A stretch of DNA of 64,000 nt, from assembly GCF_013315695.1 (NCBI RefSeq), contig NZ_CP054353.1; one strand, written 5' to 3'. The notes below the pieces were generated by a model. That model was given only the letters and a program-made list of their open reading frames with translations. It did no database searches and was not told the DNA's origin. Of the stretch, positions 8,740 through 18,915 are shown piece by piece (position 1 is the stretch's first letter; each line of letters starts with the position of its first letter). The position numbers were made by a program, and so were the translations under genes. Origin of the DNA: Escherichia coli. GTDB lineage: Bacteria; Pseudomonadota; Gammaproteobacteria; Enterobacterales; Enterobacteriaceae.

Positions 8740-9498
8740 ATGAAAATTCGCGCCTTATTGGTAGCAATGAGCGTGGCAACGGTACTGACCGGTTGCCAGA
8801 ATATGGACTCCAACGGACTGCTCTCATCAGGAGCGGAAGCTTTTCAGGCTTACAGTTTGAGTGATGCGCAGGTGAAAACCCTGAGCGATCAGGCATGTCA
8901 GGAGATGGACAGCAAGGCGACGATTGCGCCAACCAATAGCGAATACGCTAAACGTCTGACAACTATTGCCAATGCGCTAGGCAACAATATCAACGGTCAG
9001 CCGGTGAATTACAAAGTGTATATGGCGAAGGATGTGAACGCCTTTGCAATGGCTAACGGCTGTATCCGCGTCTATAGCGGGCTGATGGATATGATGACAG
9101 ATAACGAAGTCGAAGCGGTGATCGGTCACGAGATGGGGCACGTAGCGTTAGGCCATGTGAAGAAAGGGATGCAGGTGGCACTTGGTACAAATGCCGTACG
9201 AGTAGCTGCGGCCTCTGCGGGCGGGATTGTCGGCAGTTTATCTCAATCACAACTCGGTGATCTGGGCGAGAAATTAGTTAATTCGCAATTCTCCCAGCGC
9301 CAGGAAGCAGAAGCCGATGATTATTCTTACGATCTTCTGCGCCAACGCGGCATCAGCCCGGCAGGTCTTGCCACCAGCTTTGAAAAACTGGCAAAACTGG
9401 AAGGAGGCCGTCAAAGCTCAATGTTTGACGACCATCCAGCATCCGCCGAACGCGCCCAGCATATTCGCGATCGTATGAGCGCGGATGGGATAAAGTAA
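8740..9498 (+). CDS. loiP: M48-family metalloprotease lipoprotein LoiP
   Basis: 252 aa from MKIRALLVAMSVATVLTGCQ (lipobox) with HEMGH zinc motif. Confidence 0.85.
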   Translation: MKIRALLVAMSVATVLTGCQNMDSNGLLSSGAEAFQAYSLSDAQVKTLSDQACQEMDSKATIAPTNSEYAKRLTTIANALGNNINGQPVNYKVYMAKDVNAFAMANGCIRVYSGLMDMMTDNEVEAVIGHEMGHVALGHVKKGMQVALGTNAVRVAAASAGGIVGSLSQSQLGDLGEKLVNSQFSQRQEAEADDYSYDLLRQRGISPAGLATSFEKLAKLEGGRQSSMFDDHPASAERAQHIRDRMSADGIK

Positions 9499-9553
9499 GT
9501 CAGACATACCGATCTACAACATAATTGTAGGTCGGTAACGCCTGAATCCCCGA

Positions 9554-10306
9554 TCAGAGTAGTGATTTCACTTTATTTAGCAAAACGGCTACATCATCCG
9601 GTCGGGTATATCCCGTATCAGGGTCTATAATCGAGCTGTAAACATGTGGCATAATGCGCGGCACCCCCGCCTCCAGACAAGTTTTCAGAATCACACTGAA
9701 GTTATCCAAATCAATCCCGCCAGTCGGCTCAATCAGCGTCATACCATTGCGCGCCGCCGTGGTCGCCAGCGCGTATAGCTCCGGAAGCGACCTCTCGCCG
9801 CCCATCGGAAAGAACTTCGCCGCGTGTGCGCCCATATCTAGCATCATTCGCACCGCCGTATCGCAGGAGACGCGGGCTGGCGTACCCTGGCTGCTGCTAA
9901 CGCCGGTGGAAATCAGCACTTCGCCCGGCGTCCCCGTCGGGCTAACCAGCGCGTTGACATGGGTCTGCTCACCGCCCGTAGCCGCAAGCGCGCCTGCCGC
10001 GAACCCACAACCGGTAAAGGTCTGGTTAACGTGTGCTGGATGAATCTGCGCCGCAATCATCGCAGCTTTGTAATACTGCGCCGGGTCACCCGCCCCCAGA
10101 CCTACTGAAATGGACGGTATTTCCGCCATCCAACGTTTAACTTCCTGGATCCCCTCATCCACCGAGGAGAACTGCGCGGAAAGCACGCCAATCACTGCGT
10201 GGCCTTCGGCGGCGTCAAAGATTTCACGGGCATTGGCGATATCTTTCGCCAGCACATTAATTGCCACACGATTACGATAGAAATTAATCTTTTGCATGAT
10301 CTGCAA
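9554..10306 (-). CDS. dgaF: KDPG-aldolase-like protein, last gene of a sigma-54-dependent PTS operon (DgaF-like)
   Basis: 250 aa ORF at the distal end of the operon; assignment rests on operon context and analogy to the Salmonella dga locus. Confidence 0.55.
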   Translation of the reverse strand: MQIMQKINFYRNRVAINVLAKDIANAREIFDAAEGHAVIGVLSAQFSSVDEGIQEVKRWMAEIPSISVGLGAGDPAQYYKAAMIAAQIHPAHVNQTFTGCGFAAGALAATGGEQTHVNALVSPTGTPGEVLISTGVSSSQGTPARVSCDTAVRMMLDMGAHAAKFFPMGGERSLPELYALATTAARNGMTLIEPTGGIDLDNFSVILKTCLEAGVPRIMPHVYSSIIDPDTGYTRPDDVAVLLNKVKSLL

Positions 10307-11393
10307 TCTCCTTCAGTCGCGCCACGATAAGTGCCATTTCCCCTTCCGCCACCGTACGCGGATCAAGGCTAAAAACGCCCTGGTGGAGGTTATACCGCCG
10401 TGCATAAATCGCGATATCGCCACCACGCAGTTGCGCTTCGACGACGCGAGCGTCAACTCCCAATTCCTGCGCATTTACTCGAATACGAATACGCCAGATT
10501 GCACGCCCGGCTTCATCCTGCTCAATATCAGCCGTTAACCCGTGAATCGCAGAAATCGCTTCAACCACTGGCTGGAGCTGTTCCGCGGTGATGACTGCCT
10601 GCCCCTGGTGATAATTCTCCAGCGCGTAAACCAGCCCAACCATGTTCTCCTTGCCGATTTTCATCGCCTTGGCAATGCCGTGATGCTGCGCTTTGCAGGC
10701 TGCAATCCAGATTTTTTTACCAGTGATAAACCCGGAGGTCGGCGCGTTAAAGGCTTTTGCGCCGCTGTAGACCACCATATCCGCTCCACTCACCACCCAG
10801 GCACGTAAATCCTCTTCGGCGGCGGCATCGACAATCAGCGGCAGGTTGTACATCTGCGCGACATGTGCGAAGTCCTCGATGTTCAACATTCCCTTCTGCA
10901 CGCAGTGATGCGACTTCACATACAGCAGCGCGGCGGTCGCGTCGGTAATGGCACTCTCCAGCTGCCAGAGAGCCGCCAGGTTACTTGAACCCACCTCCAC
11001 AACGCGCCCGCCACCTAAGCGGATCGCGCTGAGGATCGATGCGCCGTAATCGACGTTATGGCCGCGCAGCATCACCACTTCATTGGCCATGCCGGAGCTA
11101 TCCGGCATGAGCGCCACCCGGGCCTTGTCGCCGCGGGTAATGGCGGCGGCGACAGCGATGGCGATCCCTGCTGAGGCACAGGAGGTAACGTAGCTATCCT
11201 CCGCCCCGGTAAAGCGAGAGACCAGCTCGCCGGTTTTGTCCACCAGCTGGTCAATCTCCACGAAAGAGGATGCCGCGCGCGCGGTGGCCTGCATCACCTC
11301 CAGCGCGACGCTGGAGACGCCGAGAATCGTCATCTTGCCGCAGGCGTTAATCACCTGTTTCAGTCCCAGTTGTTGATAGATATTCTGCGTCAT
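10284..11393 (-). CDS. dgaE: SelA-like PLP-dependent enzyme (D-glucosaminate-6-phosphate ammonia-lyase-like, DgaE-like)
   Basis: 369 aa ORF in operon with mannose-family PTS genes; family assigned by recall. Confidence 0.55.
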   Translation of the reverse strand: MTQNIYQQLGLKQVINACGKMTILGVSSVALEVMQATARAASSFVEIDQLVDKTGELVSRFTGAEDSYVTSCASAGIAIAVAAAITRGDKARVALMPDSSGMANEVVMLRGHNVDYGASILSAIRLGGGRVVEVGSSNLAALWQLESAITDATAALLYVKSHHCVQKGMLNIEDFAHVAQMYNLPLIVDAAAEEDLRAWVVSGADMVVYSGAKAFNAPTSGFITGKKIWIAACKAQHHGIAKAMKIGKENMVGLVYALENYHQGQAVITAEQLQPVVEAISAIHGLTADIEQDEAGRAIWRIRIRVNAQELGVDARVVEAQLRGGDIAIYARRYNLHQGVFSLDPRTVAEGEMALIVARLKEIADHAKD

Positions 11394-11396
11394 GGC

Positions 11397-12254
11397 TTAC
11401 AGCACTCCCAGCAGCGAGCAGACCACGCTCAACGCCACAATCGACAGCAGAATCGTGGTGTAACGCGGACCCTTTTTCACCAAATAGAAGTAGATGGCGA
11501 ACACTGCCGCCAGCGGCAGCAGGCCGGGCGCGATGGAGTCCAGAATCTGCTGTACCACCACTTCAGAGCCTTTCAGTGCGCTAATTTTTAAAGGTGAGGT
11601 TATCTTGACAAAGCTCGCGGATAGCGCGCCCATCATGATAAGCCCCAGTACATTAGCGCCGTAGATAAGCTCCTTGATGCGCCCCCCCTGCAGCAGGCTG
11701 ATAATCGAATCGCGCCCCAGCGTATAGCCCTTGTGCACCATGCCGTAGCTGATTGCCAGCGTAATCGCCGGGTAGAGAATCAGCGGCAAAATACCGCCCA
11801 TCGCGCTGCCATTGGCGGCGAACGGGATAAAAATAGCAATCAACAGCGGCATCACGGCCGCCCAGATGATGGAGTCGCCCATTCCGGCCAGCGGCCCCAT
11901 CAGGCCGGTTTTAATCCCGGTGATAGAGGCATCGTTAATCGCCTCGCCGCGGGTCTTTTGCTCTTCCATGGCGATGGAGATCCCTTGGATCACCGCGCCA
12001 AACGTCTGCTCTGAGTTGAAGAAGTTCAGATGGCGTTTTAACGCCTCCACCTGCTCCTCCTTTTGCGGATAGAGCTTTTTAATAATCGGCGTCATCGAGG
12101 CGCAGAAAATCAGGCTCTGTAAACGCTCATATGAGCTGGAAACTTCCGCGCCAAGCCAGTAGATAAACCACGCTTTGGTGATATCCGCTTTGGTCAGCGC
12201 CCCGGACTCCCGCGCGCGCTCCACCAGTTCATGCTGCATTACGTCGCCGCTCAT
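11397..12254 (-). CDS. dgaD: PTS mannose-family EIID component
   Basis: 285 aa polytopic membrane protein following the EIIC gene. Confidence 0.7.
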   Translation of the reverse strand: MSGDVMQHELVERARESGALTKADITKAWFIYWLGAEVSSSYERLQSLIFCASMTPIIKKLYPQKEEQVEALKRHLNFFNSEQTFGAVIQGISIAMEEQKTRGEAINDASITGIKTGLMGPLAGMGDSIIWAAVMPLLIAIFIPFAANGSAMGGILPLILYPAITLAISYGMVHKGYTLGRDSIISLLQGGRIKELIYGANVLGLIMMGALSASFVKITSPLKISALKGSEVVVQQILDSIAPGLLPLAAVFAIYFYLVKKGPRYTTILLSIVALSVVCSLLGVL

Positions 12255-13003
12255 TATGCCGCTCCTTCATTTTTCGCCAGGCCTTTAATCAGGAAGGCCA
12301 CGCAGGTGCCGAAAATCGCCATCGCCATGATGTCCACCTTGAGGTACAGCACCGCGAAGAATCCGCCGATAAACCACGGCAGTAGGCTCTTTTTACCAAT
12401 CACCATAATGGTGATGGCGAAGCCCAGCGCCGGGAGAATCCCGCCCATGATTTCAAACGAGTGGGTCAGCCAGTGCGGCATCAGCTTGAGGAAACTTTCC
12501 ACTACGTTCTGGCCGAAGTAGTTGGCGGCGAACACCACTGGGAAACGTAGCACCAGCCCCAGCAGCGCCGGGTAGAGAAAGGCGCAGCGCATAATGGCTG
12601 ATATATTGGCCGTTTCCGCGTGTTTATCGGCCATATGCACCCAGGCCGCATTTAGCGTGCGACGCAACTGGTCGAGGAATACGCCGATAACGCCAAATGG
12701 AATCGCCAGTGCAATCGCCAGGTTCGGGTCCATATTGGCCTTAACGGCGATAGGAATGGCGATACAGGCCGCCAGCGCCGGGTCTGACGGCACATTGCCG
12801 CCTGGCGTTGAGGTCACACCCAGATATACCAACTGCATCCCCGCGCCGATAATCATCGCCGCAGGCATGTTGCCGAGCAGCAGGCCGACAAAGACTGCCA
12901 CCACCACTGGCTGTAACAGCATGGCGGAGAAGGTATAGCCAAGGCGCAACCGGGCAAACCAGTAATACAGCCCCATCAGGCTTGCAAAAAGTAAGGTATC
13001 CAT
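12254..13003 (-). CDS. dgaC: PTS mannose-family EIIC component
   Basis: 249 aa polytopic membrane protein. Confidence 0.7.
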   Translation of the reverse strand: MDTLLFASLMGLYYWFARLRLGYTFSAMLLQPVVVAVFVGLLLGNMPAAMIIGAGMQLVYLGVTSTPGGNVPSDPALAACIAIPIAVKANMDPNLAIALAIPFGVIGVFLDQLRRTLNAAWVHMADKHAETANISAIMRCAFLYPALLGLVLRFPVVFAANYFGQNVVESFLKLMPHWLTHSFEIMGGILPALGFAITIMVIGKKSLLPWFIGGFFAVLYLKVDIMAMAIFGTCVAFLIKGLAKNEGAA

Positions 13004-13028
13004 AATTTGTTATCCCATGTTCAGAGGG

Positions 13029-13514
13029 TCAGAATTTTTTCAGGATATCGTCCAGCGACTGCGGCTTATCTTCCGGGATGGTCTGGAAAACAGCCTTAAT
13101 GCCGCGACTTTTCAAATCGTTAAGAATGCCAACGTCTTTTTCATCCAGAGTTATGTTCTGGAACACCGCTTTACGGTTTGGCCCGCCGCCTAAGCCGCCA
13201 ACCTGAATATCAGCCACGTCAAAGCCCTGCTGCACCGCTTCCTGAATCGCCGCCAGCGACGGGAACAGCACCAGCACGTTGCCGTCGCCCAGCTGGTTCT
13301 CTTTCCACGCGGCCGCGAAGCTCTGGTTGCTGAAGCAGTCCACTTTGATATTCGGCGGCGCGGCCATCAGGTAGATATTTTTCATAAACGGATCGGCGTC
13401 CAGCTCGTCGCTGACCACCGCAATACGGTTGGCCTGGGATTGCCCCACCCACTTCGTCACCACCTGTCCGTGGATAAGACGGCTGTCAATGCGACATAAC
13501 ACGATGTTTGCCAT
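13029..13514 (-). CDS. dgaB: PTS mannose-family EIIB component
   Basis: 161 aa; N-terminal MANIVLCRIDSRLIHGQV is the EIIB-Man phosphorylation-site signature. Confidence 0.75.
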   Translation of the reverse strand: MANIVLCRIDSRLIHGQVVTKWVGQSQANRIAVVSDELDADPFMKNIYLMAAPPNIKVDCFSNQSFAAAWKENQLGDGNVLVLFPSLAAIQEAVQQGFDVADIQVGGLGGGPNRKAVFQNITLDEKDVGILNDLKSRGIKAVFQTIPEDKPQSLDDILKKF

Positions 13515-13524
13515 ACGATTTTCC

Positions 13525-13953
13525 TTACTGTTGTAATTGACGAATATGGGAGACGACGTCCAGGCAACTGTTGCGCCCAGCTTCCACCAGATCGGCCACG
13601 CAGGCGGTCAGTGGGCCATGTTCGCGCTTGTCCAGCGCCTCCAGCAGCAGCGAGGCATTAAGCCCGGAGATCACCGCCACCGGATAATCGGCGCTCAGCC
13701 GCGCCGCCACGTTAGAGGTGGTGCCGCCGATAAAATCGGTCACGATAAGAGAACCTTCTGGCATGGTTTTCACCACGGCTTCGACGCGCTGGTAAAACTC
13801 GCCCAGCGTATCGACAGGCATCAGCGCGATTTCCGTCACGCCTTCGATTTCGCCCATCACCATGCGCAGACTGTTGCAGAGCTGCAGCCCCCAGCCGCCG
13901 TGAGTTAGCAGCAGAATTTCAGGTAACGGATGAATAGGTACAGTTGTGGTCAA
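13525..13953 (-). CDS. dgaA: PTS mannose-family EIIA component
   Basis: 142 aa; apparent TTG start preceded by AGGAGG Shine-Dalgarno; first gene after the sigma-54 promoter. Confidence 0.7.
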   Translation of the reverse strand: MTTTVPIHPLPEILLLTHGGWGLQLCNSLRMVMGEIEGVTEIALMPVDTLGEFYQRVEAVVKTMPEGSLIVTDFIGGTTSNVAARLSADYPVAVISGLNASLLLEALDKREHGPLTACVADLVEAGRNSCLDVVSHIRQLQQ

Positions 13954-13991
13954 AATAGCCTCCTTTGCTCCAGTGTTTACATTTCATCAGG

Positions 13992-14007
13992 AGCAAAGGA
14001 CGTGCCA
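13992..14007 (-). promoter_or_regulatory. Sigma-54 (RpoN) -24/-12 promoter TGGCAC-N5-TTGCT driving the PTS operon
   Basis: Minus strand reads TGGCACGTCCTTTGCT, an exact match to the GG-N10-GC consensus, about 40 bp upstream of the dgaA start and just downstream of the sigma-54 activator gene. Confidence 0.8.
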
Positions 14008-14071
14008 GAATTTGTGTCACGCACAGAGGAAATGAGATTGGATGGGGCGTTAAGCCCCGTAAACCAGGGGA

Positions 14072-16912
14072 TCAGCTGTAGAGCAGTTCGTAGATATAAA
14101 AATATTCTGCGTCCGATAAACGGATAGCGTAAGCCTCTTCAATCGGCAAAAAGGAGGATTTGATGACGCTAAAGGCACGAGCGTCCAGATCAAGCCGGTT
14201 TTCTAGCGCCATCTGTAACGGTTTGCGGTTAATCACGATACGCTCGACCATGCAGCAGCAGTGGATCAGAAAACGTAGTGTCACCTGGCGGCTCGGTTTC
14301 AGGGAGAGCGTGTTGGTTAAGTGGTTCAGAACGTCCTCGATCTCTTTCAGAATTCGCTGCGGGTTGAGCACCGAAATATGGTTGATGATGCTCTCCATGG
14401 TCAGCGCGCTGATAAAACGCATGGCGCTGCGCTCCATCTCCAGTCGGCGCTCGCTGCTTGAGAGATCCGGCGTCAGCAGGCTGAGCACCAGCTCTGGCCC
14501 TTGCTCGGAAAACAGTTCCTCCAGCGAGATAAACGGTATATCCGGCAGTCCCGGCTGGAAGGTGCCGACGATCCCTGCCAGCCGTTCACTGGCATTAAGC
14601 GCCTGCTGAATACGCTCCAGGCTGCGCACCTCGTTATAGTCGAGAATCACCATACGCGTGTCCTGCGACATCAGCTCGCCAAAGCTCTCCTCCAGCACCT
14701 TTTTGATCTTTTCCGCCGTCCCCATTCCGGTTATACATGAGATAACCAGCACTTTGCCACCGCTCTCTTGCTGCGGCGTGCAGAGCCGACAAGGGATATT
14801 TTTACTCTGCATAAGCACAGCCAATTGCGATAGATCGCCAGTTTCGTAGCTTAAATCCAGCCCCACCTCCAGCAGGCTGGTCAGAGTGATATTTGGCAAC
14901 AACAGAACGTCAATCTGGAACAGCTTGCTGATGGTGCTGCCAAAATGGACCAGCGATCCGATATCCACCATCAGTATCAGCCGCTGCCAGCACCGGTCCT
15001 GAATCATCCGGGTCAGGGTTTCCAGGGTGTCATGCACCGACTGCTCAAATGGCATATCAATTGCGTAGAACAGATCGCGCTCCAGCACCCGATTCACATA
15101 TTGCGCCTGGCTCGTTGCGGTGGTCGCACCGTGAGCGATTAGAATCACGCCGCAATCCGGGCTGGTGTCGATGCGCTGGCGGTAGTGGCGACACTCTTTC
15201 AGGAACAGGCACAGCCAGACCACCTCCGTCGCCGGGCACTGAATATGCAACAACTCATTGATTTTGCGGCACAGAAGTGTCGCATTGTCATACTCATCTT
15301 TACAGCGATCCAGAATCAGGCTGGATGAATAGAGTTGAGGTATAAGCCCTCGCCGCACATAGCCAATCAGCGCAAGAAAGTGTTTACGTAACGGGTTCGC
15401 CAGGTTTTCTGGCAATGTAAATCCTAATACCTGCTCCACGTAACCGATCAGCAGCGTCACACGCTCCTCAATTTGATCGCCATAGCGCGGTGGATGCGCC
15501 GCACTATGGCGGCTATAAAGACCATATTCAAAAATCGAACTGAGTTTGTTTTTCAGGATAGCCAGCGTTTCTGCGGGCGGCACGTTACTGTTGCGCAGAT
15601 TGACATATTCACGAGTCAGGAAACTGTAAAACAGGTCGCTCTCTTCTATTTCCGCGCTGGTCGCCAACGAATTTTTTAACGCGGGCAACGTACGCGCATC
15701 CACGTTCAGACGATCTTTACCACCAAACAACGCATCGACCAGCAGACGCTGCTCTGGCGTGGTATTAAACGACATCTCCGCCAGTCGTTTATCTAACTCT
15801 AGCGTATCATTACGCTCGGTCATTCCCGACGCCCACGCCTGCGCGCACAAGAACTGAATATCACTTTTAAGCTGGCCGATATTGCCTTCCAGGGATTTAC
15901 TTAACAACCAATGCAAGAGCGTTTTATCAAGGCTTATGGTACGTTCAATTTTACGACTTTCACGCTGAAAGAAGCTTACAATCAATTCGAGCTGCTCCTC
16001 GACCGAACGCTGGCGAATACCCGGTAAGTCAATACATACCTGGATACGCCGCTGGAAGGTACGCAATAGTGCCGAGTTGACCGACTCTGTAGTGGCGCAA
16101 ATAAGGCGCACCGAAATTGAATATGTTGGCCCACTTGAACCAAGTGGGCGGTATTCACCTTTATCGAGAATAGAAAAGAGCTTCTCTTGTCCTTCGTACG
16201 GGAGGCGATGCACTTCATCCAGAAGTAAATAGCCTCCGTCAGCTTGCTCCACCAATCCCGTTTTATTCTCACTTGCCCCGGTAAATGCCCCCTTATGGTG
16301 ACCAAACAGATGTGAGGAAAGCAACTCCGGATTATGAGCATATTCGGCACAGTTAAAGTAAACCAACGGAGGTAGCGAACCTATGGTGTGCTTGCAAGCG
16401 AAGCAATGCATTAACTCAGCAAAGAATGTTTTGCCAACACCAGATGCCCCGGTTAACAGCACATGTAGTCCGTGGGGATAGAGCACCGCTGCGCGGCCTT
16501 TTTCTACCGCATCACGGAGACTACGGTCGTATCCGATAAGTCCGGAAAACGGATCATCATCTGTATATTTTTCTTTCTTTGGCAATAAACTAGCCACTGA
16601 ATGAACTATGCATTCGCAATCATCCAGTTTTCGATTAATGAGCAATTCTAGTGCGTGACGATGTAGAAAAAAAACAGGACGTCCCTGACTTTTTACCACC
16701 AGGCCTTCATTCCATAATTGATTAAGATCTTTACTAACCGAGTTGCGTGCCAGCCCAAGGTTAAAACCAATCGCCTCAGCAGTAAATGCTTTCTCCTTCG
16801 CTAAATCAGACAGTTCCAGCCCATACGTCAGCCGCTCCAGCTCCTTGTGAATAACATCAATCCGTCTCATTTCTTTACCGCTTAAAAAACAATAGTTGTT
16901 CAGAACATACAC
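14072..16912 (-). CDS. dgaR: Sigma-54-dependent transcriptional activator with PTS regulation domains (LevR/DgaR-like)
   Basis: 946 aa ORF; AAA+ sigma-54 interaction domain with Walker A (GASGVGKT) and GAFTGA motif; long C-terminal region consistent with PRD/EIIA-like domains. Confidence 0.8.
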   Translation of the reverse strand: MYVLNNYCFLSGKEMRRIDVIHKELERLTYGLELSDLAKEKAFTAEAIGFNLGLARNSVSKDLNQLWNEGLVVKSQGRPVFFLHRHALELLINRKLDDCECIVHSVASLLPKKEKYTDDDPFSGLIGYDRSLRDAVEKGRAAVLYPHGLHVLLTGASGVGKTFFAELMHCFACKHTIGSLPPLVYFNCAEYAHNPELLSSHLFGHHKGAFTGASENKTGLVEQADGGYLLLDEVHRLPYEGQEKLFSILDKGEYRPLGSSGPTYSISVRLICATTESVNSALLRTFQRRIQVCIDLPGIRQRSVEEQLELIVSFFQRESRKIERTISLDKTLLHWLLSKSLEGNIGQLKSDIQFLCAQAWASGMTERNDTLELDKRLAEMSFNTTPEQRLLVDALFGGKDRLNVDARTLPALKNSLATSAEIEESDLFYSFLTREYVNLRNSNVPPAETLAILKNKLSSIFEYGLYSRHSAAHPPRYGDQIEERVTLLIGYVEQVLGFTLPENLANPLRKHFLALIGYVRRGLIPQLYSSSLILDRCKDEYDNATLLCRKINELLHIQCPATEVVWLCLFLKECRHYRQRIDTSPDCGVILIAHGATTATSQAQYVNRVLERDLFYAIDMPFEQSVHDTLETLTRMIQDRCWQRLILMVDIGSLVHFGSTISKLFQIDVLLLPNITLTSLLEVGLDLSYETGDLSQLAVLMQSKNIPCRLCTPQQESGGKVLVISCITGMGTAEKIKKVLEESFGELMSQDTRMVILDYNEVRSLERIQQALNASERLAGIVGTFQPGLPDIPFISLEELFSEQGPELVLSLLTPDLSSSERRLEMERSAMRFISALTMESIINHISVLNPQRILKEIEDVLNHLTNTLSLKPSRQVTLRFLIHCCCMVERIVINRKPLQMALENRLDLDARAFSVIKSSFLPIEEAYAIRLSDAEYFYIYELLYS

Positions 16913-17127
16913 TATTTGTAAACGTAAGAATGAGAACTACCGGGAAGAATTAATGTTCCTTGTGGCAATCTGGTTTCTGAATATTCGTGTTTTAAATATT
17001 ACTTATGGTCTGAAACAACCAGGCAGGTGAACAGAGCTAAGAAAAAGTCGCGTAGAAATATAAAAACATATATCGCACTGATGAATGTTTCCCGGCATGA
17101 CATACACACCGGGAAATATTTAGTAAA

Positions 17128-18048
17128 TTACTCGCCCTTTTTCGCCGCCTGAATATACAGCATTTCCAGCGCCAGCGTCGCCGCAGCCAGAGCGGTGATT
17201 TCCGACTGATCGTATGCCGGAGCCACTTCCACTACGTCCATCCCAACAATGTTGAGATCTTTCAGGCCGCGTACCAGTTTAATAGCGCGATCGGAGGTCA
17301 GGCCGCCAATTACTGGCGTACCGGTTCCCGGCGCGAAAGCAGGATCCAGGCAGTCGATATCAAAGGTCAGGTAAACCGGCATATCACCTACAATCTGTTT
17401 CACCTGAGCGATAACGTCATCCACGCTGCGATCGTTCACCTGGCAGGCGTCCAGCACGGTAAAACCGTTGTCTTTATCAAACTCGGTACGAATACCAATC
17501 TGCACGGAATGATTCGGGTCGATCAGACCTTCTTTCGGCGCGGTATAGAACATGGTGCCGTGGTCAAATTCACAACCGTTCGCATAGGTGTCGGTGTGGG
17601 CGTCAAAGTGTACCAGCGCCATTTTGCCGAAATGCTTCGCATGAGCACGCAGCAGCGGCAGCGTAACAAAGTGGTCACCACCGAAGGAGAGCATACGCTT
17701 ACCGGCAGCCAGCAGCTTCTCGGCGTGCGCCTGCAGCTTCTCGCTCATCTCACGGGCATCGCCGAAGGCATATACCAGATCGCCGCAGTCCACGACGTTC
17801 AGGCGCTCACGCATGTCGAAATTCCACGGGAAGCGATTGTGTTCCCAGGCCAGATTCGTCGAAACCTGACGGATCGCTGCCGGACCGTGGCGACCACCCG
17901 CACGACCAGAAGTGGCCATATCGAACGGCACGCCAGTAATCACCCAGTCAGCATCGCTGTCATATGGCTGGAAGTTCATCGGCAGGCGTAAAAAACCAAA
18001 GGCGTTGGAAACCAGTGAGTTATCGTATTGATGACCTAAGGTGCTCAT
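17128..18048 (-). CDS. speB: Agmatinase
   Basis: 306 aa; ureohydrolase motifs (GGDH, DAHTD). Confidence 0.95.
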
Positions 18049-18183: not shown

Positions 18184-18915
18184 CTATTTCCGACACGGTG
18201 GCGGCGCATAGCCATTGTTGTCCGCCGGAAAGGCTTGTCCAGAGCACGGCGGCAGCGCGTTTTGCGCCGGGCCTTGTAATTCAAAGGCGGCAAAGCCGAT
18301 TACACCGGTATTACGCACATCGCCTTGCGCCGAATTGGCTGCGTAGGAATCAGCAACGTTGGCGAACTGAAAAGCCGCTTCGGTATGTTTATCTTTGCGG
18401 AATCCTTTAATCGCTAACGAATCTCCGGCATTCACAATATAGCCGTTGTTATTCAGCGAACCTTGCTTGCCGTTCAGCACATCCAGGCCATCAACCGTAG
18501 CAACGATCTCGTAGTTGGTATTACGACTGTAATTGCGGACATATAATTGATAATTCATTCCTACTCTGGCATGGACAATATAGCGTGGTTCATTATTGGA
18601 TGAATCATAAACCCGCGTAATAGGTAGAGAATTAAAATTACCATCGCGAATAGCATATTCCAGTTCGTTAATACGAATGCTATAAACGCGGTCGTAGCCC
18701 GAAGGAACAGTAGTCGAATAACTAATAACGATCATCTCTGCCGGATCGCGCCAGGCTCGCTCAGCAGATACGCCCTGAACCGATGAGTGCACATCCCCAC
18801 CCCAGGCGGTGCCGACATTGCCCGATGTACTGCTATTATACTGCGCATTACTGGAACAACCGGCCAGCAGCACGGCTAATGCTATCAACGCGCTACGTAC
18901 TTTCCATTTTTTCAT
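18184..18915 (-). CDS. Predicted lipoprotein of unknown function
   Basis: 243 aa; signal peptide with lipobox LLAGC; RBS GAGGGA upstream; flanked by AT-rich sequence. Confidence 0.6.
   Translation of the reverse strand: MKKWKVRSALIALAVLLAGCSSNAQYNSSTSGNVGTAWGGDVHSSVQGVSAERAWRDPAEMIVISYSTTVPSGYDRVYSIRINELEYAIRDGNFNSLPITRVYDSSNNEPRYIVHARVGMNYQLYVRNYSRNTNYEIVATVDGLDVLNGKQGSLNNNGYIVNAGDSLAIKGFRKDKHTEAAFQFANVADSYAANSAQGDVRNTGVIGFAAFELQGPAQNALPPCSGQAFPADNNGYAPPPCRK

Follow-up and report, generated by a model that had tools for sequence, protein, structure and literature searches.

The dgaR-dgaABCDEF locus of Salmonella enterica serovar Typhimurium (STM3773-STM3766; Miller et al. 2013, as cited in PMC4987338 and PMC9529869) serves the utilization of D-glucosaminate, and both the pathway and its regulation have been described (PMC4987338, PMC9529869). 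The Salmonella dgaA promoter, TGGCACAACCTTTGCT, binds and responds to RNA polymerase holoenzyme that carries sigma-54 (E-sigma54), as supported by experiment, and the Salmonella operon is upregulated 39-fold under a promiscuous activator (PMC3844500). Use of the pathway by related enterobacteria has been stated (PMC9529869), and a D-glucosaminate phosphotransferase system (PTS) is listed for Escherichia coli in a 2015 survey based on KEGG (PMC4603813). Here, we describe a block of seven genes that lies between loiP and speB in a 64-kb stretch of E. coli DNA and that matches the Salmonella locus in its genes and in their order and orientation. We consider it highly probable (roughly 0.9) that this block is the Escherichia ortholog of Salmonella dgaR-dgaABCDEF. 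All coordinates refer to the 64-kb stretch, called the window below, and gene starts follow the RefSeq/Prokaryotic Genome Annotation Pipeline (PGAP) annotation.

Orthology of the loiP-speB block with the Salmonella dga locus

We recovered the Salmonella locus through an exact-sequence look-up of the DgaE chain of PDB 7LC0; it adjoins mgtCB and carries the same seven genes. All seven proteins of the window are 85 to 97% identical to their Salmonella counterparts over the full length and are encoded in the same order, in agreement with the match to the dga locus that had been proposed from the letters of the window (the original prediction). The first gene, dgaR (dagR in RefSeq; 14072-16870), encodes a LevR-type sigma-54 enhancer-binding activator of 932 amino acids (aa) that is 88% identical to Salmonella DgaR. 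It is followed by the genes for four enzyme II (EII) subunits of a mannose-family PTS: dgaA (13525-13953; TTG start after AGGAGG) for EIIA (142 aa, 85% identity), dgaB (13029-13514) for EIIB (161 aa, 92%), dgaC (12254-13003) for the membrane subunit EIIC (249 aa, 96%), and dgaD (11397-12257) for the membrane subunit EIID (286 aa from the PGAP start, 97%), the last overlapping the end of dgaC by 4 nt. The final two genes are dgaE (10284-11393), for a pyridoxal phosphate (PLP) enzyme with 86% identity to Salmonella DgaE, and dgaF (dagF in RefSeq; 9554-10297), which overlaps the end of dgaE by 14 nt and encodes a 2-dehydro-3-deoxy-6-phosphogluconate aldolase of the PF07071/EF_0839 type (247 aa, 85%).

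These genes all lie on the minus strand and fill 9554-16870. Seven co-directional genes had been claimed, and seven minus-strand open reading frames (ORFs) are indeed seen in 9554-16912. The outer end of that interval holds as the GTG that opens the longest ORF; the annotated start of dgaR is instead the ATG at 16870, which gives a DgaR of 932 aa, equal in length to the Salmonella protein.

We found that three of the proteins exceed the cut-offs of dedicated NCBIfam equivalog models: DagR (NF047795, 1523 bits versus a cut-off of 1400), DgaE (NF047797, 686.5 bits versus 600), and DagF (NF047796, 350.6 bits versus 300). The four EII subunits matched general mannose-family models only and fell under the cut-offs of the Man, Aga, and galactosamine equivalogs. 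Specifically, the dgaA product matched TIGR00824 (EIIA-man), under the Man and Aga equivalog cut-offs; the dgaB product matched TIGR00854; the dgaC product matched EII-Sor/AgaW families, in each case under the equivalog cut-off; and the dgaD product matched TIGR00828 (EIID-AGA). Because the EII subunits lie under the Man, Aga, and galactosamine cut-offs while DagR, DgaE, and DagF lie above theirs, no other PTS family fits better. Low identity to the Dga proteins together with a closer match to another PTS family would have spoken against the orthology, and we found neither.

The seven-gene order, with the regulator gene first and all genes in one orientation, also occurs in Salmonella and in about 35 other enterobacterial loci, and the order of the module is kept across Citrobacter, Klebsiella, Cedecea, Pantoea, Erwinia, Hafnia, Serratia, and others. 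Orthologs of E. coli and Salmonella are typically about 90% identical. The core neighbors of the block show a similar spread when compared with Cedecea, with amino acid identities of 82% for loiP, 93% for speA, and 97% for speB.

The locus is already known: its genes are named in RefSeq as dagR, dgaE, and dagF. Strain MSB1_4I was a 100% match in a megablast search of 5,426 complete E. coli genomes, and the RefSeq annotation of this strain gives, in transcription order, dagR, mannose-family PTS IIA, IIB, IIC, and IID, dgaE, and dagF, with speB upstream of the block and loiP downstream.

Catalytic and phospho-acceptor residues

We compared DgaE with the crystallized Salmonella enzyme (PDB 7LC0/7LCE) and found 86.2% identity with zero gaps. 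The residues H162 and H163 and the phosphate cluster R301/R332/R346 have been named for this enzyme (PMC9529869). All of these, together with K213 of the SGAK motif, are invariant among 84 homologs, the protein of the window included. Lys-217 has been given as the active-site lysine (PMC9529869); we rejected this assignment, as Ala occupies position 217 of each protein and K213 is the lysine of SGAK. Position 226 is Arg in Salmonella and Lys here. We also rejected this substitution as a sign of altered specificity, because the position is variable in the family and Lys is its commonest state.

In the permease, the four mannose-family EII subunits are separate proteins, and the phospho-acceptor histidines of EIIA and EIIB are present, in the motifs LLTH18GG of DgaA and RIDSRLIH15GQ of DgaB. 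Thus, at the level of sequence, every feature of dga-family membership that we tested was found in the block.

The predicted sigma-54 promoter and the dgaR-dgaA intergenic region

A perfect TGGCAC-N5-TTGCT had been predicted between the activator and EIIA genes, and we located it at 13992-14007 on the minus strand (read from 14007 to 13992). This putative sigma-54 (-24/-12) promoter of dgaABCDEF, TGGCACGTCCTTTGCT, lies 65 nt past the dgaR stop codon and 39 nt ahead of the TTG start of dgaA. It is the sole exact match in the window, where 0.05 matches would be expected by chance, and one match was seen in 5 of 100 shuffles. A -24/-12 element lies 62 to 79 nt (mostly 67) past the last dgaR codon in 40 of 40 enterobacterial loci. 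By sequence and placement, the E. coli element is the positional ortholog of the Salmonella dgaA promoter.

Alignment of 24 enterobacterial loci revealed three further elements between dgaR and the promoter. Just past the dgaR stop codon is a GC-rich hairpin, GGGGC-TTAAC-GCCCC (14041-14062, minus strand), which was read from the sequence; its position is kept while its sequence varies. It lacks a T-run and was missed by a simple terminator scan. The hairpin is probably a terminator or insulator for dgaR. It is followed by a variable C/T-rich spacer and then by a conserved box, GTGACACAAA (14011-14020, minus strand), which ends 3 nt upstream of the -24 element and is conserved in at least 90% of the 24 loci.

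DgaR and a candidate enhancer within its gene

The DgaR protein is laid out as an N-terminal helix-turn-helix region, an AAA+ domain, a first PTS regulation domain (PRD1), an EIIA-Man-like domain with His-580 (VILIAHG), and a second such domain, PRD2, with His-870. Pfam placed Sigma54_activat (PF00158) at residues 112-270 (E = 3.7e-40) and PRD at residues 475-558 (weak, E = 0.005) and 846-930 (E = 4e-8); it made no call for the EIIA-like domain, which is recognized by its motif only. The GAFTGA loop is at residue 194. Both His-580 (VILIAH580G) and His-870 (LIH870CCC) are invariant in 23 of 23 DgaR orthologs.

The binding site of DgaR is listed as not known (PMC4987338). We observed that the peak of synonymous-codon conservation across the whole 932-codon dgaR gene, among 23 enterobacterial orthologs, falls at codons -71 to -26 from the end. 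The permutation p value of this peak ranged from 0.0002 to 0.008 with window size, and the last 75 codons differed from the rest of the gene (Mann-Whitney p = 0.002). Within the peak, the rare codons ACA and TTA are 100% conserved. The conserved DNA blocks in this region are CAGGTGACACT, CTGATCCACTG, GAGCGTATCGT, and AAACCGTTACAGAT. Moreover, in most loci the GTGACAC core of the box next to the promoter is found again within dgaR, at -277 and, in inverted form, at -162; in the window, the conserved GTGACAC is at 14278-14284, the -162 motif at about 14163-14169, and the core of the box at 14014-14020.

These observations lead us to suggest, tentatively, that an enhancer for DgaR might sit inside the 3' end of its own gene, in the last ~70 codons (14150-14287, minus strand), about 143 to 280 nt upstream of the -24 element. 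Such an enhancer would be built of GTGACAC-type motifs at -277 and, inverted, at -162, with a third abutting the promoter at -13. If this is true, then this 3' stretch of ~70 dgaR codons, in which His-870, the predicted inhibitory site of PRD2, is also encoded, would carry a dual protein and DNA code that is conserved across the Enterobacterales. The synonymous conservation at the 3' end could also reflect constraints at the RNA level or of another kind.

Distribution and origin of the block

The whole strain-variable block, from the loiP stop codon to the speB stop codon, spans 9499-17127 (7,629 bp). In K-12 MG1655, loiP (b2936) and speB (b2937) are adjacent, as the original prediction had it, and are separated by a 205-bp spacer that is itself made of repetitive extragenic palindromic (REP) elements. 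K-12 thus lacks the operon here, and its presence would have counted against the original prediction. By BLAST, homology to a K-12-like strain breaks off at 9498 and picks up again at 17128, exactly at the stop codons of the two genes, so that the block stands in place of the REP spacer. Searches for remnants of the block in the K-12 spacer, or the reverse, gave chance-level matches of 13 to 16 nt only.

By megablast, 562 of 5,426 complete E. coli genomes (about 10%) carry the block, as a single chromosomal copy. The genomes in which it is contiguous with its flanks (at least 80% coverage) also number 562; since the counts are equal, the block is always at loiP-speB. In all but two of the 562 genomes, the copy has at least 99% identity, and two main alleles occur, one 99.8 to 100% identical to the window and the other, at 99.3%, in many O26, O111, O91:H21, and O178:H19 strains.

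We also observed that the loiP-speB spacer takes several forms in E. coli, namely, REP elements only (~205 bp; locus L002, 1501-1705), a 1.56-kb DUF1266 gene (locus L003, 1501-3297), and the 7.6-kb dga block, with further size classes of the matched span at about 2,020, 2,062, and 2,401 bp. As the DUF1266 gene occupies the same spot in other strains, the spacer is a variable site.

The original prediction described the operon as inserted between loiP and speB. The position stands; the data do not establish insertion as the direction of the change. A recent, horizontally acquired island, truly inserted into an ancestrally empty spacer, would explain why about 90% of the complete E. coli genomes, among them those of K-12 and the type strain, lack the block. 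It would also fit the G+C content at third codon positions of dgaA to dgaE (0.67 to 0.74, somewhat above the 0.54 to 0.63 of the neighbors) and the placement of the operon elsewhere in Salmonella and Citrobacter, which share another site, from yicS to an EamA-family gene. The block is near uniform in E. coli while its flanks are ~2% off K-12, a pattern that fits spread by recombination. However, the block does not have the makeup of a mobile island: no integrase, insertion sequence element, or tRNA is annotated in it, no repeats were found at its boundaries, and its edges coincide with the loiP and speB stop codons. In addition, the per-gene nucleotide identity is roughly 78 to 89% to Salmonella, Citrobacter, Klebsiella, and Cedecea alike, near that of the flanking core genes to Cedecea (75% for loiP, 85% for speA, and 86% for speB). 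With the four genera about equally distant, and with ~80 to 87% nucleotide identity to every other genus, no recent foreign donor is evident from these comparisons. A second Escherichia species, of a cryptic clade (L026), and Cedecea neteri (L009) also carry the operon at loiP-speB; against the window, the island of L026 is 97 to 98% identical at the nucleotide level and its flanks are 94.6 to 96.3% identical. Finally, the K-12 REP spacer could equally mark a deletion scar. We therefore regard recent insertion as possible but somewhat unlikely. The data fit at least as well with a locus that is old in Escherichia and has disappeared from most lineages, or has been shuffled within the genus through recombination in the flanks. 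Thus, the locus is a presence/absence polymorphism at loiP-speB and not demonstrably a recent insertion.

Predicted pathway and its control

We propose a mechanism for E. coli by analogy with the Salmonella system; the substrate, the dependence on rpoN and DgaR, and the phospho-control described here are accordingly predictions. DgaABCD would form a four-subunit permease that imports D-glucosaminate (2-amino-2-deoxy-D-gluconate) and phosphorylates it to D-glucosaminate-6-phosphate, with the phosphoryl group coming from phosphoenolpyruvate via EI and HPr. DgaE, with its PLP cofactor, would then strip water and ammonia to give 2-keto-3-deoxy-6-phosphogluconate, which DgaF would split into pyruvate and glyceraldehyde-3-phosphate. 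With these products, D-glucosaminate would give both carbon and nitrogen. Transcription of dgaABCDEF is expected to start from the -24/-12 promoter with sigma-54 RNA polymerase and to require DgaR. Phosphorylation of the EIIA-like His-580 by HPr~P would activate DgaR and tie the operon to catabolite control, while phosphorylation of His-870 in PRD2 by DgaB~P would inhibit DgaR as long as no substrate is transported.

Several points weigh against assigning the Salmonella function to this block. Searches of the literature, which were noisy or empty, found no experiments on any E. coli strain. DgaR is just 70% identical to its Salmonella counterpart in the N-terminal DNA-binding region (codons 1-100, 16571-16870), versus 86 to 96% in the other domains. 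One of the three GTGACAC-type motifs, that at -162, is altered in this strain, reading GCGTCAT for GTGTCAT. Moreover, the sole phenotype datum that we found does not track the dga locus: on Biolog PM1 plates, the E. coli type strain ATCC 11775 is reported to be positive for D-glucosaminic acid and K-12 negative (PMC4334874), and yet the loiP-speB site of the type strain is empty (NZ_CP033092.2, 900378-902260; locus L088, 15378-17260). Nor does the type strain carry a megablast-detectable dga island anywhere, because the flank-contiguous set lies within the island set, both have 562 members, and the strain is in neither. The positive result hints that another route exists or that the assay is non-specific. 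Since the type strain is positive without the island, we set the Biolog data aside as a phenotype test; they neither support nor refute the function.

The same machinery could act on another substrate in E. coli, for example, a different 2-amino-2-deoxy-aldonate or amino-sugar acid, and the Salmonella name would then mislead. The substrate is assigned by orthology only, the permease subunits have no NCBIfam equivalogs, and about 14 to 15% of the residues of DgaA, DgaE, and DgaF are not those of the Salmonella proteins. Against this, DgaC and DgaD, which determine specificity, are 96 to 97% identical to those of Salmonella; all of the named active-site and phosphate-binding residues of DgaE are kept; and the divergence resembles that of the core neighbors from Cedecea, as expected for orthologs of unchanged function. 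We judge a different substrate to be very unlikely. It is just as improbable that E. coli has ceased to express or use the locus and keeps it as a silent or decaying remnant. In favor of that reading, the locus is dispensable for most strains, the activator gene of one genome in the sample (H90) carries an internal deletion, and this strain has an altered -162 motif; against it, the seven ORFs are full length relative to Salmonella, the promoter is perfect, the catalytic and regulatory residues are intact, and 560 of 562 copies have at least 99% identity with full coverage.

With D-glucosaminate utilization retained as the favored function, this oxidation product of glucosamine is a predicted extra carbon and nitrogen source for about one-tenth of E. 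coli strains. Many of the carriers belong to cattle-associated Shiga toxin-producing E. coli serotypes (such as O26, O111, O91:H21, and O178:H19). The operon would add one more member to the sigma-54 regulon beyond the set of K-12, and the assignment can serve metabolic modeling at the strain level and studies of niche. It changes no concept, because Salmonella work has already established the pathway, its enzymes, the kind of regulator, and the promoter, and RefSeq has names for the E. coli genes. The modest gain lies in delimiting the polymorphic site, in evidence for an old Escherichia locus and against a recent import, and in a candidate location for the DgaR enhancer.

Other features of the block and its neighborhood

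The convergent genes loiP and dgaF are separated by 55 bp, which hold an inverted repeat, CCGATCTACAA-CATAA-TTGTAGGTCGG (9509-9535), read from the sequence, which is probably a bidirectional terminator. At the other end, the G+C content falls to 0.40 in 16500-16999, which covers the AT-rich 5' end of dgaR and part of the spacer upstream of it (16871-17127). A simple scan for sigma-70 promoters and terminators found no sigma-70-like promoter for dgaR in this spacer; the scan gave fewer matches than shuffled sequences and was uninformative. No structured RNAs were matched in Rfam at the gathering threshold.

Between speB and speA, at 18184-18915 on the minus strand, is a gene for a predicted lipoprotein of 243 aa, with a lipobox and the N terminus MKKWKVRSALIALAVLLAGC. 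The protein belongs to no Pfam family, and in NCBIfam it gave only weak matches to signal peptides. K-12 MG1655, with just 137 bp between speB and speA, lacks the gene; MSB1_4I, ATCC 11775, and Escherichia sp. MOD1-EC7003 have it. It is a second presence/absence polymorphism adjoining the dga block.

Comparison with known systems

The closest described system is the Salmonella dga locus. Beyond gene content, the two share an orthologous -24/-12 promoter with the same flanking box, GTGACACAAATTC, and the active-site and regulatory residues are kept. They differ in site, as the Salmonella operon lies between yicS and an EamA-family gene near mgtCB and the E. coli block lies at loiP-speB. The Salmonella locus also carries extra segments, one REP-like and of ~95 to 100 nt between the promoter and dgaA (L083, 7125-7323) and the other of ~120 nt between dgaB and dgaC (L083, 8246-8390); the E. 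coli counterparts are 13954-13991, in the 39-nt leader, and 13004-13028. These Salmonella-type sequences are also present in Citrobacter youngae, C. amalonaticus, and a few others. Two further differences are the low identity of the DgaR N-terminal domain (70%) and the variability of the locus among E. coli strains.

Outside the enterobacteria, we found that pairs of DgaE and DgaF homologs with 42 to 51% identity are widespread in Firmicutes and Actinobacteria, including gut Clostridia, Erysipelotrichaceae, Collinsella, and Olsenella (L039-L082). Some of these pairs lie beside a DgaABCD-like PTS, in which the DgaC and DgaD homologs have 57 to 65% identity; next to many of the pairs, there is no homologous PTS. 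At the thresholds used, these gut genomes gave no DgaR homolog.

In its control architecture, the block resembles LevR/levDEFG-sacC of Bacillus subtilis and other LevR-type regulons, which share the logic of a sigma-54 enhancer-binding protein with C-terminal PRDs and an EIIA-Man-like domain. There, too, the activator adjoins the four-subunit mannose-family PTS under its control; the substrate and the downstream enzymes differ. We take His-580 and His-870 of DgaR to correspond to His-585 and His-869 of LevR, by position and motif only. The mannose-family EIIA/B/C/D architecture is also shared by Salmonella gfrR-gfrABCDEF (for fructoselysine and glucoselysine), which has a LevR-like sigma-54 activator as well, and by the E. 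coli aga and man systems. The EII subunits described here fall under the equivalog cut-offs of ManXYZ, AgaBCD/F, and AgaVWE, and the enzymes that go with them, DgaE and DgaF, are specific to the dga pathway.

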